From sequence record NC_049950.1: 46,288 nucleotides of DNA, one strand, 5' to 3'. The notes under the pieces are model-generated. The model had not been told where the DNA came from, searched no databases, and worked only from the letters and a program-made list of their open reading frames with translations. The translations under genes and the position numbers were made by a program. Position 1 is the first letter of the stretch, and every line of letters starts with the position of its first letter. The DNA is from Escherichia phage 2H10. This document shows, in pieces, positions 5,182-45,238 of this stretch.

Positions 5182-6481
5182 TCTCCCGCATATTGCCAGC
5201 ATGGCTTTTAATGAGCCGCTGATGCTTGAACCCGCCTATGCGCGGGTTTTCTTTTGTGCGCTTGCAGGCCAGCTTGGGATCAGCCGCCTGACGGATGCAG
5301 TATCCGGCGACAGCCTGACTGCCGGAGAGGCACCCGCGGCGCTGGCGTTATCCGGTGATGATGACGGACCACGACAGGCCCGCAGTTATCAGGTCATGAA
5401 CGGCATCGCCGTGCTGCCGGTGTCCGGTACGCTGGTCAGCCGGACGCGGGCGCTGCAGCCGTATTCGGGAATGACCGGTTACAACGGCATTATCGCCCGT
5501 CTGCAACAGGCTGCCAGCGATCCGATGGTGGACGGCATTCTGCTGGATATGGACACACCGGGCGGGATGGTGGCGGGAGCATTTGACTGTGCTGACATCA
5601 TCGCCCGTGTGCGAGACATAAAACCGGTATGGGCGCTGGCCAACGACATGAACTGCAGTGCAGGTCAGCTGCTTGCCAGCGCCGCCTCCCGGCGTCTGGT
5701 CACGCAGACCGCCCGGACAGGCTCCATCGGCGTCATGATGGCTCACAGTAATTACGGTGCTGCGCTGGAGAAACAGGGCGTGGAAATCACGCTGATTTAC
5801 AGCGGCAGCCATAAGGTGGATGGCAACCCCTACAGCCATCTACCGGATGATGTCCGGGAAACACTGCAGTCCCGGATGGATGCAACCCGCCGGATGTTTG
5901 CACAGAAGGTGTCGGCATATACCGGCCTGTCCGTGCAGGCTGTGCTGGATACCGAGGCTGCAGTGTACAGCGGTCAGGAGGCCATTGATGCCGGACTGGC
6001 TGATGAACTTGTTAACAGTACCGATGCGATCACCGTCATGCGTGATGCACTGGATGCACGTAAATCCCGTCTCTCAGGAGGGCGAATGACCAAAGAGACT
6101 CAATCAACAACTGTTTCAGCCACTGCTTCGCAGGCTGACGTTACTGGCGTGGTGCAAGCGACGGAGGGCGAGAACGCCAGCGCTGCGCAGCCGGACGTGA
6201 ACGCGCAGATCACCGCAGCGGTTGCGGCAGAAAACAGTCGCATTATGGGGATCCTCAACTGTGAGGAGGCTCACGGACGCGAAGAACAGGCACGCGTGCT
6301 GGCCGAAACCCCCGGTATGACCGTGGAAACGGCCCGCCGTATTCTGGCTGCAGCACCACAGAGTGCACAGGCGCGCAGTGACACTGCGCTGGATCGTCTG
6401 ATGCAGGGGGCACCGGCACCGCTGGCTGCAGGTAACCCGGCATCTGATGCCGTTAACGATTTGCTGAACACACCAGTGTAA
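5162..6481 (+). CDS. C: Head maturation protease / scaffold C (S49 ClpP-like)
   Basis: GTG start at 5162 gives VTAELRNLPHIASMAFNEP... (439 aa), the same length as lambda gpC. 20-nt overlap with B as in lambda. The upstream part of the 484-aa ORF is out-of-gene read-through. Confidence 0.9.
5876..6481 (+). CDS. nu3: Scaffolding protein Nu3 (in-frame internal start within C)
   Basis: ATG at 5876 (MDATRRMFAQK...) lies 714 nt into C, the same nesting as lambda Nu3. Confidence 0.8.
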   Translation: MDATRRMFAQKVSAYTGLSVQAVLDTEAAVYSGQEAIDAGLADELVNSTDAITVMRDALDARKSRLSGGRMTKETQSTTVSATASQADVTGVVQATEGENASAAQPDVNAQITAAVAAENSRIMGILNCEEAHGREEQARVLAETPGMTVETARRILAAAPQSAQARSDTALDRLMQGAPAPLAAGNPASDAVNDLLNTPV

Positions 6482-23717: not shown

Positions 23718-24292
23718 TGGCATTCAGAATGAGTGAACAACCACGGACCATAAAAATTTATAATCTGCTGGCCGGAACTAATGAATTTATTGGTGAAGGT
23801 GACGCATATATTCCGCCTCATACAGGTCTGCCAGCAAACAGTACCTATATTGCACCGCCAGATATTCCGGCTGGCTTCGTGGCTGTTTTCAACAGTGATG
23901 AGGCATCGTGGCATCTCGTTGAAGACCATCGGGGTAAAACGGTTTATGATGTAGCGTCAGGGGACGCGTTATTTATTTCTGAACTCGGTCCGTTACCGGA
24001 AAATGTTACCTGGTTATCGCCGGAAGGGGAGTTTCAGAAGTGGAACGGCACAGCCTGGGTGAAAGATGCAGAAGCAGAAAAACTGTTCCGGATCCGGGAG
24101 GCGGAAGAAACAAAAAACAGCCTGATGCAGGTAGCCAGTGAGCATATTGCGCCGCTTCAGGATGCTGCAGATCTGGAAATTGCAACGGAGGAAGAAATCT
24201 CGTTGCTGGAAGCATGGAAAAAGTATCGGGTATTGCTGAACCGTGTTGATACGTCAACTGCACAGGATATTGAATGGCCAGCACTGCCGTAG
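23717..24292 (+). CDS. tfa: Tail fibre assembly protein
   Basis: [34 protein letters not shown]..., lambda Tfa. Confidence 0.9.
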
Positions 24293-30649: not shown

Positions 30650-31176
30650 TTGCGTAACTCCGATAACTCGTTAAAACGTTCCATAAACATCCCGTAGGCA
30701 TGACCCGGTGCTAGTGGAATCACGTTGAACATCTCTGTTGCCGGGATGCCTTCCAGTACAGGCCAGAAAGAGCCATCATCAAGCCCGAGATCGCGGCGTT
30801 CGGTTGCCAGCATGATGAGATCGGCATATTTCACGGGCGTACTCATAACTGGGGGTAACCCGTATTTCTCACGGATTACGGCGTCTATTTTTTCTTCCAT
30901 CCGTTTATAGTCAGGAAGAAGTCGTTTCAGTGGTGCGGGGATGTCTTGGCAATATGCTTCTGTTGCATCATGCATTAACGCTTCAAAAGCAAATTCCTGC
31001 GGTACCAGCTGGCTGCAAAGCACCGCATGTTGGGCGACGCTGTAGAAGTGTGCAAGATGCCCTGCAAAGCGACAGATATTTGAAAGGGAAACCGCGATAT
31101 CGTTAATAACGATGTCGTCTTTATTTATCTTGTCATAATAAAAATGCTTCCCGGAAAAAGTTTTAATAAATGACAT
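30640..31176 (-). CDS. yfdR: HD-domain phosphohydrolase, YfdR-like
   Basis: From the internal Met, MSFIKTFSGKHFYYDKINKDD... (178 aa). HD motif in ALMHDATEAY. The ORF extends to 31239. Confidence 0.8.
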   Translation of the reverse strand: MSFIKTFSGKHFYYDKINKDDIVINDIAVSLSNICRFAGHLAHFYSVAQHAVLCSQLVPQEFAFEALMHDATEAYCQDIPAPLKRLLPDYKRMEEKIDAVIREKYGLPPVMSTPVKYADLIMLATERRDLGLDDGSFWPVLEGIPATEMFNVIPLAPGHAYGMFMERFNELSELRKCA

Positions 31177-34222: not shown

Positions 34223-34786
34223 ATGAGGCTAACCGTGGGTAAGTATCACTGGAAAGTAGAAAAACAGCCTGAGTGGTACGTGAAAGCTGTCAGAAAAACT
34301 ATCGCAGCGTTGCCGGGTGGTTACGCTGAAGCAGCTGACTGGCTGGATGTAACAGAGAACGCATTATTTAACCGCCTTCGTGCCGATGGCGATCAGATTT
34401 TCCCGCTGGGATGGGCAATGGTTTTACAGCGCGCGGCTGACACTCACTACATTGCGGATGCTGTCGCACAGTCTGCTGGTGGGGTGTTCGTATCGCTTCC
34501 TGAAATTGAGGAAGTAGAGAACGCCGATATAAACCAGCGCCTGCTGGAAGTCATCGAACAGATCGGGAATTACTCAAAGCAGATTCGTTCGGCAATCGAA
34601 GATGGGGTCGTGGAGCCACACGAGCAGACAGCAATTAATGATGAGTTGTATCTGTCAATTTCGAAGCTCCAAGAGCATGCAGCACTGGTCTACAAAATCT
34701 TTTGCGCTCCAGAAAAGAGTGACGCCCGCGAGTGTGCAGCTCCGGGCGTCGTGGCGTTTTGTGTCTGTGGAGAAACTAACGCATGA
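34223..34786 (+). CDS. CII-type regulatory protein (Phage_CP76 / e14 YmfL-like)
   Basis: 187 aa, ...NALFNRLRADGDQIFPLGWAMVLQRA...DINQRLLEVIEQIG... Resembles YmfL/CP76 from memory. An alternative GTG start at 34235 has a GAGG RBS. Confidence 0.65.
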   Translation: MRLTVGKYHWKVEKQPEWYVKAVRKTIAALPGGYAEAADWLDVTENALFNRLRADGDQIFPLGWAMVLQRAADTHYIADAVAQSAGGVFVSLPEIEEVENADINQRLLEVIEQIGNYSKQIRSAIEDGVVEPHEQTAINDELYLSISKLQEHAALVYKIFCAPEKSDARECAAPGVVAFCVCGETNA

Positions 34787-35619
34787 ACAGTTTAACGGCA
34801 AATAACCGTTTGTCGCAACAGCTGGTGGTCAGTGTCGCTGAACACCTGTTGTTACGGCATGAATGCAGATTACCAAATCACCTGGCTGTAAGTAACCACA
34901 GAGAACTTTACCTGACTGTGGGGGGCGAGTTGTGCGGGAACTTAACCGCTGGTTTCGTGACGGAAGAGGGCTTTATGTCCATGTTATTCGTTGGGAACCA
35001 GAAACACAGCGCGTTATCTATCTTCGCAAAGACTACCCGCATGAGTGCTTTAGTCCTTTGTGGAAATTCAGGCGTGATTTTGTTGAGTGTGAAGGACCAC
35101 CAGCACATTGATTCTGCCATTCCGGGACGTTACACTGTTCAGGCACCTTATAAAGCGGGTGACGGGATTGGCGTCCTGGAAATGTTATCGGCGATATATG
35201 ACGCGCCAGCGTCTTTTTTATCGTCTGTGTCTGTGCACACCCAAATTATGGTGGGCTGGACGGGGGCACCGAAAGGTGCGCCGGTTTCCGATAACGCCGG
35301 TTACGCCAACCCCGTTCAGTTCACCACCAGCGAAATTGGCGTTTCCGGTGGTGAAGGTAATTCACTGTTATCGGAGGCTGCCATCATGGCTACTGTCCCA
35401 GCCCTCACTCGTCTGAATGATGAAGACTTACATAAACTCAGTTATGTAACAACTGCACTACGTGCTCTGCGCAAGGTAACTCTTTCGGATCCGCAGGCGC
35501 ATCAGGTTTTGGTAGAAACCCTTCTTAACTTGCAGGCTGAACGTATTCGTCTGGCGGATAAGGCTAATTTTCATATTCACCGTCTCCTGAATATCAGCGG
35601 AGGGCATCGTCATGCTTAA
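34783..35619 (+). CDS. Unrecognised 278-aa early-right protein
   Basis: ATGA overlap with the cII-like gene. No motif I can name. Confidence 0.6.
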   Translation: MNSLTANNRLSQQLVVSVAEHLLLRHECRLPNHLAVSNHRELYLTVGGELCGNLTAGFVTEEGFMSMLFVGNQKHSALSIFAKTTRMSALVLCGNSGVILLSVKDHQHIDSAIPGRYTVQAPYKAGDGIGVLEMLSAIYDAPASFLSSVSVHTQIMVGWTGAPKGAPVSDNAGYANPVQFTTSEIGVSGGEGNSLLSEAAIMATVPALTRLNDEDLHKLSYVTTALRALRKVTLSDPQAHQVLVETLLNLQAERIRLADKANFHIHRLLNISGGHRHA

Positions 35620-35848
35620 TCCGTTGATCCTCAATATTTGCCGTTTGCTTCAGCGTAAAAAAACATCAATTCCTACAGTTGGGCAGTGGTACACCACGCC
35701 TGCAGGGCATGTTCTACGTGTTAGCCTGGTTGACCGTGAATGTCAGAAGGTGATTTGTGAACCGCTGGGCCGTAATTACCGCATCAGTATGCCGCTTATA
35801 GCCTTTTGCTCCGGAAAAAACATGAAGCATCTCGGAGGTGCAGCATGA
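35612..35848 (+). CDS. Small 78-aa protein (possibly DUF4222-like)
   Basis: Overlaps both neighbours (translational coupling). ...VGQWYTTPAGHVLRVSLVDRE... pattern. Confidence 0.5.
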   Translation: MLNPLILNICRLLQRKKTSIPTVGQWYTTPAGHVLRVSLVDRECQKVICEPLGRNYRISMPLIAFCSGKNMKHLGGAA

Positions 35849-36663
35849 GTATGGAGCTGATGGTTAAAGCGATGAAAATTCGAGTGGGTAATCCATTGCG
35901 AAAACTGGTTCTGATCAAGCTGGCTGATAATGCCAGCGATCAGGGTGAGTGCTGGCCCAGCTACCAGCATATTGCTGACCAGTGCGAGATTAGCAAACGT
36001 TCTGTGATGAATCATATTGCGGCCCTTTGTGATTCCGGGCTGGTAAAAAAAGTCACCCGGAAAGGTGAAAAAGGTAACTCAAGTAATATCTATCTCCTTC
36101 ATCTTGATGGTGCAGGAGATTCACTAGGGGGTAGTGCAAATAATTCACTATCTGGTGCAGCAAATTCACCAGGTAGTGCAGGAGTTGCACCAGGGGGTGG
36201 TGCAGGAGATTCACCCAGAACCAGTCACTCTTTTGAACCAGTCAAAGAACCAGTCAATGAACCAATAGCTGTTGGTGCATCTGCTGATGAGTCTGTGCGA
36301 GTTCGTTCAAACCGACCGGAATACTCTCCGGAGTTTGAGCAGGCATGGCTGGCATACCCCAAACGTGCTGGTGGCAATTCAAAATCTGCAGCCTTCAAAG
36401 CCTGGAAAGCCCGTTTGAATGAGGGGGTAAAACCCGAAACCATGCTGGAAGGTGTGAAACGCTACGCGGGCTGGGTATCTGCGATGGGTAACAGCGGCAC
36501 ACAATTTGTGAAACAGGCTGTCACGTTCTTTGGTCCGGATCGTCATTTCGAAGAATCCTGGGAAGTTCCTGCGGTATCTGCAGCCAGACGCGAGGACCCG
36601 TACTTCAAAGCCAGTTACGACAACGTGGACTACAGCCAGATCCCGGCAGGATTCAGGGGGTAA
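35845..36663 (+). CDS. Replication initiator (N-terminal winged-HTH, O-like, with internal ori iterons)
   Basis: GGAGG RBS and ATGA overlap with the upstream ORF. MSMELMVKAMKIRVGNPLRKLVLIKLADNASDQGECWPSYQHIADQCEISKRSV..., then a Gly/Ser/Ala linker encoded by the iterons, then a C-terminal FEQAWLAYPKRAGGNSK..AFKAWK motif. Confidence 0.7.
   Translation: MSMELMVKAMKIRVGNPLRKLVLIKLADNASDQGECWPSYQHIADQCEISKRSVMNHIAALCDSGLVKKVTRKGEKGNSSNIYLLHLDGAGDSLGGSANNSLSGAANSPGSAGVAPGGGAGDSPRTSHSFEPVKEPVNEPIAVGASADESVRVRSNRPEYSPEFEQAWLAYPKRAGGNSKSAAFKAWKARLNEGVKPETMLEGVKRYAGWVSAMGNSGTQFVKQAVTFFGPDRHFEESWEVPAVSAARREDPYFKASYDNVDYSQIPAGFRG
36109..36214 (+). repeat. Five ori-type iterons inside the initiator gene
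   Basis: GGTGCAGGAGATTCAC (36109), GTAGTGCAAATAATTCAC (36131), GGTGCAGCAAATTCAC (36154), GTAGTGCAGGAGTTGCAC (36173), GGTGCAGGAGATTCAC (36199), spaced ~21-24 bp. Followed by 3 copies of GAACCAGTCA (36218-36256). Confidence 0.7.
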
Positions 36664-41074: not shown

Positions 41075-41374
41075 AAAAATTCCTTAATACTGATAACTGG
41101 GCGCACTATACACACGTTCCTGAAGAAAGCTATAGTTTTTTGATGGGGTTGAAGATGGCTGGATGTCTAAAATAAACATTGCTTCATATGTTCAACTATG
41201 CGTTAATGATTGCGTCGGTTTGAAGAACAGACGATATACGAAGTAGTTTACTAAAGCAGTTCTCATTTCAGGTGTTATTCACTTATTCCTTCTTTGAGTC
41301 TCTCCAATTAAGTACGAAGTCGTTTCTGTTATACAAGCCATTTATGCCGAAAGGCTCAAGTTAAGGAATGTAGA

Positions 41375-41590
41375 ATGTCAAATAAAATGACTGGTTTAGT
41401 AAAATGGTTTAACGCTGATAAAGGTTTTGGCTTTATTTCTCCTGTTGATGGTAGTAAAGATGTGTTTGTGCATTTTTCTGCGATTCAGAATGATAATTTT
41501 CGAACCTTATTTGAAGGTCAAAAGGTTACCTTCTCTGTAGAGAGTGGTGCTAAAGGTCCTGCAGCAGCAAATGTCATAATTACTGATTAA
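41375..41590 (+). CDS. cspB: Cold shock protein CspB
   Basis: 71 aa, [53 protein letters not shown]... Confidence 0.95.
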
Positions 41591-41871
41591 AATTCATAGT
41601 TTGTCTGTATACGATAACGAAGAAGGCTGATGCCTGAGTGGAGATACAGACAGAGTGGTGAATATTGGATCTCTTTAATAAATAGTAAGGAGGTCCAATA
41701 CATGAAACAATGGCCAGCATATTTGGCAATAACTTAATCAGGAAAAGTATGCTAACCATTGTGGTGAAGTGCAGGTTTGCTGCATGAATAGTTTTACAGC
41801 AGAAGCTAACTGCTGGCATAGCAAAACAAAGTGCGTAAGTGGATGACTCCCACAAAAAGCACCACAATATT

Positions 41872-44463: not shown

Positions 44464-44826
44464 ATTAATATTAAATCGGATTATTTTTAGCGCTGAATGT
44501 GAAATTTAAATAAAAAGGACTCTTCCATGAGTCAAAATTCTTGAAATCTTAAGGGTAAGATAAAAGGTCATTAGACAGAATGACACGTTTTATTAATAAA
44601 TAAAGCTATTGTTTCATTCGTGTGTTTTTCTTTACAAAAGTAATCCTTGCTATGGTTGGTTAATCATGCGTTAATGGTGTTCTGGTTTGTTACAAAATTA
44701 TCTGAAGCAGTCATTGTTATAATTTTATTATTTGTACCTCTTGAGATTTCCTTGTTGGTTTTTCTCTCTGATATTTTTTTTCGGACCATTCTGCCCAAGG
44801 GCTAACTTCTTCAAAAGGTAATAATG

Positions 44827-45039
44827 ATGTCTAACAAAATGACTGGTTTAGTGAAATGGTTTAACCCTGAAAAAGGTTTTGGTTTCATCACGCCGAAAGA
44901 TGGTAGCAAAGATGTGTTTGTCCATTTCTCAGCTATTCAGAGCAACGATTTCAAAACGTTAACTGAGAATCAGGAAGTCGAATTTGGTATTGAGAACGGA
45001 CCTAAAGGCCCCGCGGCTGTTCATGTAGTGGCACTTTGA
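44827..45039 (+). CDS. cspI: Cold shock protein CspI
   Basis: [70 protein letters not shown], 70 aa. Confidence 0.95.
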
Positions 45040-45238
45040 GGTAGAAAATATTACAAACCATATTCACTTTAGATGCCCGTGTTGCCATGGTTCTCAGTAT
45101 AGAACATCATCTTTTGATGTTTCTGACAGGAATCCTTTCGGGGCAAAATGTATCTTTTGTAAATCAATGATGATTACATTTGATAATATTTCACAATACT
45201 TAAATGTTAGCCGTCTGTCGTTAGATTTAAGAAAGTGA
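45029..45238 (+). CDS. Zinc-ribbon ORF downstream of cspI lacking a canonical start codon (YmcF/YnfQ-like position)
   Basis: The open frame ...[59 protein letters not shown] has no ATG, GTG or TTG upstream of the CxxC pair. The nearest in-frame ATG codons lie after the second CxxC. Only ATT codons (45050, 45062) lie upstream. Confidence 0.35.

Follow-up and report, generated by a model that had tools for sequence, protein, structure and literature searches.

A putative antisense-RNA immunity module and an overlapping DUF4222 gene within a 278-codon open frame upstream of the replication initiator of Escherichia phage 2H10

The genome of Escherichia phage 2H10 (NC_049950.1; 46,288 nucleotides (nt), here called the window) has, between a CP76/YmfL-type cII gene (34223-34786) and a replication initiator gene, an open reading frame (ORF) of 278 codons that begins MNSLTANN and runs from 34783 to 35619. 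Its start shares an ATGA with the cII stop. An ORF of 78 codons (35612-35848) overlaps its end by 8 nt and closes with a TGA that overlaps the ATG of the replication gene at 35845. An initial annotation, made from the sequence alone, gave these open frames and ATGA overlaps correctly, and read the long ORF as one 278-amino-acid (aa) protein with a low-complexity centre and a helical tail. We consider it probable that the long ORF instead spans three different things: a ymfM-like frame with an overlapping DUF4222 gene, an antisense-RNA module, and a separate ORF of 77 codons. Judged by its sequence, the middle part (35108-35385) is an antisense-RNA immunity module of the P1 immI/P4 type, comprising a promoter-like site, two RNA genes and their target sites. 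The kind of system is known; here it has a cargo that is not an antirepressor and stands before the replication genes. The parts of the module and its cargo are as follows.

35108-35136, plus strand: promoter-like site for the IsrK-like RNA (TTGATT 35108-35113, 17-nt spacer, TACACT 35131-35136, 6 nt before G35143)
35143-35219, plus strand: RNA like IsrK and P4 SeqA (a1 35168-35174, b1 35183-35194, intrinsic terminator 35200-35219)
35244-35331, plus strand: antisense RNA like C4 and P4 CI (b', 12-nt loop, 35285-35296; a', single strand, 35303-35309)
35336-35377, plus strand: downstream targets (a2 35336-35342; b2 35366-35377, TGTTATCGGAGG; Shine-Dalgarno (SD) sequence in b2, 8 nt before ATG 35386)
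35386-35619, plus strand: 77-codon ORF, predicted to be the C4-controlled cargo (own SD and ATG, third-position excess, predicted helical hairpin)

Two Rfam families match the middle of the long ORF, both in a local scan and in a scan of the whole window. The C4 antisense RNA (RF01695) scores 82.8 bits against a gathering score of 45 and is matched over model positions 1-87 of 87; isrK (RF01394) scores 55.4 bits against 50 and ends in the intrinsic terminator, the sole one found in the scanned region. Both RNAs are found in phages SfV, mEp460 and cdtI and in a Citrobacter locus, the four relatives that hold the segment known in databases as the 'Ash' domain, and the same Rfam scan finds neither in e14 or in three other loci that lack this segment. 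In an alignment of the window with these four relatives, the 'Ash' part consists of conserved blocks alternating with hypervariable ones, resembling stems with variable loops. The Gly/Ser/Ala-rich centre that had been taken for a protein feature is the translation of two RNA genes above Rfam gathering scores. The C4 family is defined by processing with RNase P from a longer transcript and by activity in trans, and we infer such processing here.

Pairing between the C4-like RNA and its targets was followed over 53 distinct modules with 12 different 12-nt C4 loop sequences, collected from viral contigs by DNA pattern and not by ORF; slid registers, used as controls, are 29-56% paired across the four intermolecular helices. 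The loop b' is 94.7% paired with b2 (slid controls 38-49%), with seven of the 12 pairs changed on both sides, and none of 500 shuffles gives pairing as high. The same loop is paired in 91.5% of cells with b1, which lies in a single-stranded part of the IsrK-like RNA, and here eight of 12 pairs have changed on both sides. The element a', 3' of the loop hairpin, is paired in 99.7% of cells with a1 in the IsrK hairpin loop (five of seven pairs changed on both sides) and is 94% paired with a2 (four pairs changed on both sides). The three helices of C4 itself are 100% paired in the 53 variants, with eight compensated pairs (slid controls 40-46%). In the window the loop is fully complementary to both targets. 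Directly observed in the DNA are the matches to RNA families, the folds, the four helices that co-vary, the placement of b2 over the SD sequence, and the coding-type stretches described below. The 12 co-varying loop/target types look like RNA-based immunity specificities that recombine freely with different cargos, and as such they may bear on cross-talk between prophages and on superinfection.

The module is present in 332 phage records of INPHARED, mostly Shiga toxin (Stx) phages, and is hardly ever annotated as RNA. Four viral contigs (L136, L144, L174 and L181) have the complete IsrK/C4 module twice, at a distance of ~865 nt. The two differ in loop type, and each has a Rha gene after it; the open frame across the second module begins MIRNIFK, the N-terminus of the 78-aa-type gene. 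The b-target core has a third exact copy, GTTATCGGAG, on the minus strand of the window (30659-30668), and the ATG (30649) of a DUF551 gene follows 8 nt later. We rejected this copy as a third C4 target: the same sequence accompanies all other loop types represented in loci holding that gene and, since it does not co-evolve with the C4 loop type, it is probably a coincidence.

The left edge of the module carries a putative promoter. Homology between modules from unrelated upstream contexts starts at TTGATT or a few bases 5' of it, and TTGATT-17-TACACT is conserved and forms the left module edge in at least six different contexts. G35143, 6 nt past TACACT, is the first base of the IsrK match. 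The isrK gene of Gifsy-1 is transcribed from a promoter of its own at the corresponding position (PMC4825925), and we infer the same function for this site.

The pattern of variation separates the module from its neighbours. Variable sites were counted by codon position (1/2/3) over 60 distinct near relatives. The excess at third positions is clear in cII (18/22/83) and present in the 78-aa ORF (11/7/22) and in the replication gene (3/0/10). The 77-codon 3' part shows a weak excess overall (8/5/11) that is clear at 35453-35542 (1/0/6 and 2/0/7). No excess is seen in the module (17/18/8 over 35113-35385) or in the first 146 nt of the long ORF past the ATG (4/7/4 over 34786-34931). Residues 117-210 of the long ORF nevertheless match Pfam Phage_ASH (PF10554) at 62.9 bits against a cut-off of 26 (E value 4e-17), contrary to the earlier statement that no domain is recognisable, and PHROGs 3960 and 821, which also match the long ORF, are labelled transcriptional regulator. 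The Phage_ASH stretch thus scores above the cut-off, yet it does not evolve as protein, even though its frame stays open.

Base for base, the Ash match falls on the promoter, IsrK-like and C4-like elements: the conserved 'protein' motifs are promoter hexamers and RNA stems, and the variable blocks are the co-varying RNA target and loop sites. Because module homology begins at or near TTGATT and continues through the spacer and TACACT to G35143, the conserved 'IDSAIPGRYTVQ' of Ash proteins is, on comparative grounds, the translated promoter-like site, and the rest of the domain is translated IsrK and C4. Phage P4 provides a control. Its old 'cI gene product' ORF matches Phage_ASH and overlaps an Rfam C4 match, with an isrK-type match upstream, and P4 immunity is exerted by the CI RNA (PMC4825925). 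The label 'Ash family protein' in RefSeq and Pfam, and the labels 'Rha', 'Ant', 'peptidase' and 'transcriptional regulator' in many phage records, cover a promoter and two RNA genes, and they mislead on the control of antirepressor and replication genes in these prophages, many of which are Stx phages. The locus itself has been annotated in different ways. The DNA of the window is 95.7% identical to phage SfV (orf37, 'immunity region', and orf38), whose record annotates the entire long ORF as 'immunity region'. On DNA that is 100% identical, RefSeq leaves the 278-aa ORF uncalled; its calls are an 'ash family protein' of 181 aa (35074-35619) and, in another frame, a DUF4222 gene of 59 aa (34932-35111).

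The 'helical C-terminus' of the supposed large protein belongs to an ORF of its own, with its own SD sequence, which is a C4 target. By its codon pattern and start signals, the 77-codon ORF is the real coding part of the 3' third of the 278-codon frame. The b2 target contains GGAGG lying 8 nt before ATG 35386, and the SD sequence and ATG of the ORF after b2 are conserved in all module types. The AlphaFold model of the 77-aa product has a mean predicted local distance difference test score (pLDDT) of 83.7 and is a helical hairpin (helices 12-29 and 36-71); a fold search with it returns generic or designed helical hairpins only. In mEp460, cdtI and the Citrobacter locus the ORF in the same slot is a Rha antirepressor (PF09669). 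The 77-aa ORF shares just its first ~8 codons with the Rha genes, a profile search finds no Rha or Ant domain in it, and we rejected the idea that it is a diverged Rha domain. One and the same loop type is found with a Rha antirepressor in some relatives and with the 77-aa ORF in others, and the 77-aa cargo is combined with at least four loop types. A third cargo type is seen in four viral contigs (L146, L152, L134 and L222); it has ~115 codons from its own ATG (~200 from the IsrK start), ends ...RRNQWEV(R/H)P, and is of neither the Rha nor the 77-aa type. NCBIfam gives no match for any product of the locus.

The 5' third of the long ORF holds two overlapping frames.

34783-35118, plus strand: ymfM-homologous 5' part of the long ORF (ATGA start at the cII stop; no stop of its own here, continues in frame)
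34932-35111, plus strand: DUF4222 gene, 59 aa, GTG start, in the -1 frame inside the long ORF (Pfam, RefSeq, and the ratio of nonsynonymous to synonymous polymorphism, pN/pS)

The initial annotation had placed the long ORF in the slot of e14 ymfM, and the comparison bears this out: both begin MNSLT, both have the same ATGA overlap with a YmfL-type cII gene, and they are 32% identical over 99 aa (E value 1e-8) within the first ~110 codons. About half of the YmfM identities fall within the part overlapped by DUF4222, where the ymfM frame has a pN/pS of 1.38. The DUF4222 frame (PF13973, 50.9 bits against a cut-off of 27) has a pN/pS of 0.23 over the same overlap in 17 related loci, where the other frames are at 1.4. 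The relation is reversed in the first 55 codons of ymfM, with 0.34 in the ymfM frame against 1.2-1.4 in the others. All 23 genome loci found through DUF4222 hold both frames, most of them with an ATG start and an upstream GGAGG for DUF4222, and in loci with no RNA module after it, the DUF4222 gene ends in a stop that overlaps the start of the replication gene. In all 25 of 25 loci the ymfM frame runs across the overlap without a stop; resampling of synonymous codons predicts an open frame in 3-8% with E. coli codon usage or 18-43% with the pooled usage of the genes themselves. Val and Leu codons that precede a codon starting with A have neither A nor G as their last base (0/72, compared with 27/56 where the context is safe; only a handful of these sites are independent). 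Because the ymfM frame stays open and these codons are avoided, both frames appear, from the sequences compared, to be used. Within the phage type of the window itself, the ymfM-like part lacks a coding signature, and it has stops in a few relatives.

We also considered a -1 frameshift that would join the ymfM-like N-terminal part to DUF4222. The frames are compatible with this, and a heptamer, G GGG GGC, stands at 34918-34924 of the window. None of the 17 group-B loci has it, and DUF4222 there has its own SD sequence and ATG; the frameshift was rejected as unsupported.

The long-ORF call thus hides a conserved DUF4222 gene. This gene occurs in 113 phage records of INPHARED, in many of them beneath a long ORF that bears the label Rha, Ant, peptidase or transcriptional regulator (for example mEp460, Stx1a/Stx2 phages and Lys8385Vzw). 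A DUF4222 ORF of 59 codons is likewise embedded in e14 of E. coli K-12 MG1655 (6002-6181 of locus L003), in the -1 frame and overlapping ymfM (5823-6161); it starts with TTG, has AAGGAG upstream, ends with a stop that overlaps the start of oweE/ymfN, and is unannotated in NC_000913.3. Across the overlap, the DUF4222 frame is better conserved in the 17-locus comparison than that of ymfM, the annotated division-inhibitor gene of E. coli K-12. Cells that express the e14 ymfM ORF from pBAD24 form filaments (bioRxiv 10.1101/2020.11.19.390815). The cloned fragment takes in almost the complete DUF4222 ORF as well, and mutants specific to one frame were not part of the study (bioRxiv 10.1101/2020.11.19.390815), so the ymfM expression and deletion experiments leave the two products unseparated, and the product that causes filamentation could be either.

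A candidate OOP-like antisense RNA lies on the minus strand over the cII stop (~34711-34818). It comprises an invariant TTGCG(A/G) (34813-34818), an 18-nt spacer and TAAACT (34789-34794); a GC-rich hairpin (34713-34742), succeeded by ACUCUUUUCU, lies ~40-50 nt further downstream. Pairing in the hairpin is 99.4% over 15 loci, with three compensated pairs, and the 79-nt RNA has a fold z score of -3.06. The block is kept even beside a different cII-type gene (L006, L026) and has no Rfam match.

Downstream of the cargo ORF, the chain of overlapping starts and stops extends to the replication initiator, as the initial annotation had described, and the 78-aa ORF is a real gene.

35612-35848, plus strand: 78-aa gene (GGAGG 7 nt before ATG; stop overlaps the ATG of the replication gene)
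35845-36663, plus strand: replication initiator, HTH_36 / DnaD-like N-terminus (Pfam HTH_36, E value 2.8e-11; PHROG 270, replication initiation protein, E value 1.5e-88)

The 78-aa protein has 41 homologues, all enterobacterial and named 'hypothetical protein', and matches PHROG 1153. Its model (pLDDT 82.5) consists of an N-terminal helix and a small SH3-like beta-barrel; fold matches are to generic small barrels (KOW, Tudor, SH3, DUF1653) and uncharacterised phage proteins, none below an E value of 0.001. A paralogous relation to DUF4222 was tried and set aside, since neither the profile-profile comparison (E value 0.11, in the expected register) nor the Pfam matches (two of 17 members, E value 0.064) reach significance. 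Elsewhere in the window, matches at the Rfam gathering level are IS009 at 24060-24258 (221 bits) and two cspA thermoregulator elements at 41214-41653 and 44669-45085 (156 and 112 bits).

From the anatomy of the locus and from what is known of P1, P4 and Gifsy-1, a model can be proposed for the promoter, the processing of the RNAs, how strongly and in which direction regulation acts, its effect on replication, and the place of the 77-aa and 78-aa proteins in it. In a lysogen, the early promoter would be off and the module's own promoter would fire. Most transcripts would stop at the terminator at 35219 and yield the IsrK-like RNA, and read-through would yield the C4-like RNA. The elements b' and a' of C4 would then pair with b2 and a2 just upstream of the 77-codon ORF and, because b2 includes the SD sequence of that ORF, C4 would hide it and shut off translation. 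Since the 77-aa ORF, the 78-aa ORF and the replication initiator overlap start to stop, the block is expected to spread downstream through lost coupling and polarity, so that replication-gene expression would stay low in a lysogen, or in a superinfecting phage that shares its C4 type. The IsrK-like RNA, with its decoys a1 and b1, may titrate C4 and so lift the block. We regard this explanation as a whole as likely. The initial annotation had suggested replication control or superinfection exclusion; because the centre of the ORF is an immunity-type regulatory element, this is close in spirit, although not as the work of a single 278-aa protein.

Several observations weigh against this explanation. 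A promoter scan of 34600-35900 reports no site at the scanner's threshold, and TTGATT-17-TACACT is a weak match to the consensus (8/12). The 77-aa product has near-identical copies and no other detectable relative. The predicted effect on the replication gene is drawn solely from the overlap of ORFs, each of which also has its own GGAGG. Finally, a module that is purely non-coding does not account for a frame that is open through the RNA genes in all variants. Among the 53 module variants the frame of the long ORF never meets a stop, compared with 30 distinct stop sites in the other two frames, 29 of them polymorphic; by chance the probability is (2/3)^30 = 5e-6. Module lengths are 254, 257 or 260 nt only, with all indels multiples of 3, and an in-frame ATG lies upstream in every context, including those without ymfM/DUF4222. 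Ribosomes probably cross the RNA genes at some stage, because the frame is stop-free in all these variants and the indels preserve it.

This openness invites a reading that complements the antisense-RNA explanation and that we hold as possible, though tentative. Ribosomes of the early operon, starting from ATG 34783 or another upstream ATG, would read through the RNA genes into the cargo, melting the IsrK terminator and the C4 fold in cis and passing the ribosome binding site blocked by C4. The module would be transparent in lytic growth and repressive only on the untranslated transcripts of its own promoter. The same 250 bp would then encode two regulatory RNAs and also be translated, and a frame held open by selection could amount to a translation-driven override of the immunity module, a proposal we put forward with equal reserve. 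In Gifsy-1, translation of the antirepressor requires translation of orf45 across the STnc1160 region downstream of IsrK (PMC4825925). Against such translation are the absence of a third-position excess in the module, the coincidence of its conserved 'protein' motifs with promoter hexamers and RNA stems, and stops in the ymfM-like 5' part of a few relatives. In P1 the icd frame is open just 11 codons upstream and does not cross c4, so the open frame is not general to C4 systems. The alternative that the open frame encodes a conventional 278-aa 'Ash family' protein (SfV orf37) regulating through its Ash domain takes up the same openness, the annotation of the whole ORF in SfV, the Phage_ASH score and the PHROG labels. 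It is very improbable, given that the match coincides with the promoter and RNA elements, that covariation is of the RNA type with no codon periodicity, that an intrinsic terminator lies inside the ORF, that the 5' third is better conserved in another frame, and that the eponymous P4 ORF overlaps the CI RNA.

A host-directed early protein of the YmfM type, inhibiting division, could apply to the ymfM-like/DUF4222 5' third alone. Positional and sequence homology to e14 ymfM and the filamentation caused by that ORF speak for it; the presence of almost the whole DUF4222 ORF in the published construct, and the missing coding signature and occasional stops of the ymfM-like part here, speak against it, and we judge it rather unlikely. 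At the 3' end, the module might instead be a decayed remnant, a Rha antirepressor module whose cargo was deleted and whose RNA genes and 77-codon ORF are idle, in line with the few codons that the ORF shares with Rha genes and its lack of relatives beyond near-identical copies. This is hardly probable: in the window the loop and both targets are fully complementary, the cargo occurs with at least four loop types, part of it shows a third-position excess, and the arrangement of the locus is 100% identical in prophages of at least 17 complete E. coli genomes.

The antisense-RNA module proposed here can be compared with four known systems. The closest in layout is immI of P1 and P7. The P1 record has the same order and spacing of promoters, a1, b1, c4, a2, b2, a small ORF (icd) and an overlapping next ORF (ant1); the small ORF starts ~10 nt after b2, its ribosome binding site is the b2 target, and it overlaps the next ORF (by 8 nt here). 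The C4 of the window matches an Rfam family built on P1/P7 c4, and in both there are two recognition elements and two target pairs. In the window, however, no antirepressor comes next, its place being taken by the 78-aa barrel protein and the replication initiator; an intrinsic terminator lies between a1/b1 and C4; and the frame through C4 is open, unlike in P1. BLASTP finds no similarity between P1 Icd and the 77-aa, 78-aa, DUF4222 or YmfM-like products, and the 77-aa ORF was rejected as an Icd homologue.

In phage P4 the immunity region (SeqA, CI RNA, SeqC) keeps the replication gene alpha off. The pair of Rfam matches recurs in P4 in unchanged order (60.8 bits for isrK-type, 74.9 bits for C4), as does an overlapping ORF that matches Phage_ASH, and in both phages the module stands upstream of replication genes. 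For P4 CI, the reported mode of action is premature termination of transcription (PMC4825925), whereas in the window b2 sits on the SD sequence, and for this reason a translational block is the first choice here. The host element also differs, being a lambdoid prophage that has a protein repressor as well.

Gifsy-1 has the arrangement isrK-orf45(STnc1160)-anrP, in which IsrK has its own promoter and a leaky terminator, and the processed RNA STnc1160 lies downstream and shares complementarity with IsrK (PMC4825925); we take STnc1160 as C4-like from its position. IsrK acts in trans to activate the downstream ORFs, and translation of the cargo depends on translation across STnc1160 (PMC4825925). 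AnrP has a counterpart in relatives of the window, which carry a Rha-type antirepressor. The orf45 frame of Gifsy-1 ends at a stop of its own ahead of anrP, whereas the equivalent frame of the window runs into the cargo stop-free; the cargo here is a 77-aa predicted helical protein and no antirepressor, and the site is between cII and the replication gene. The comparison with e14 YmfM (SfiC) of E. coli K-12 concerns the 5' third: the slot after a YmfL-type cII, the MNSLT start and the embedded DUF4222 ORF are shared. The e14 ymfM frame ends just before the replication gene, with no RNA module, whereas the frame of the window continues into the module. The switch proposed for 2H10 is thus of a known kind that is often annotated as protein in databases, and this locus has been misread in the same way.

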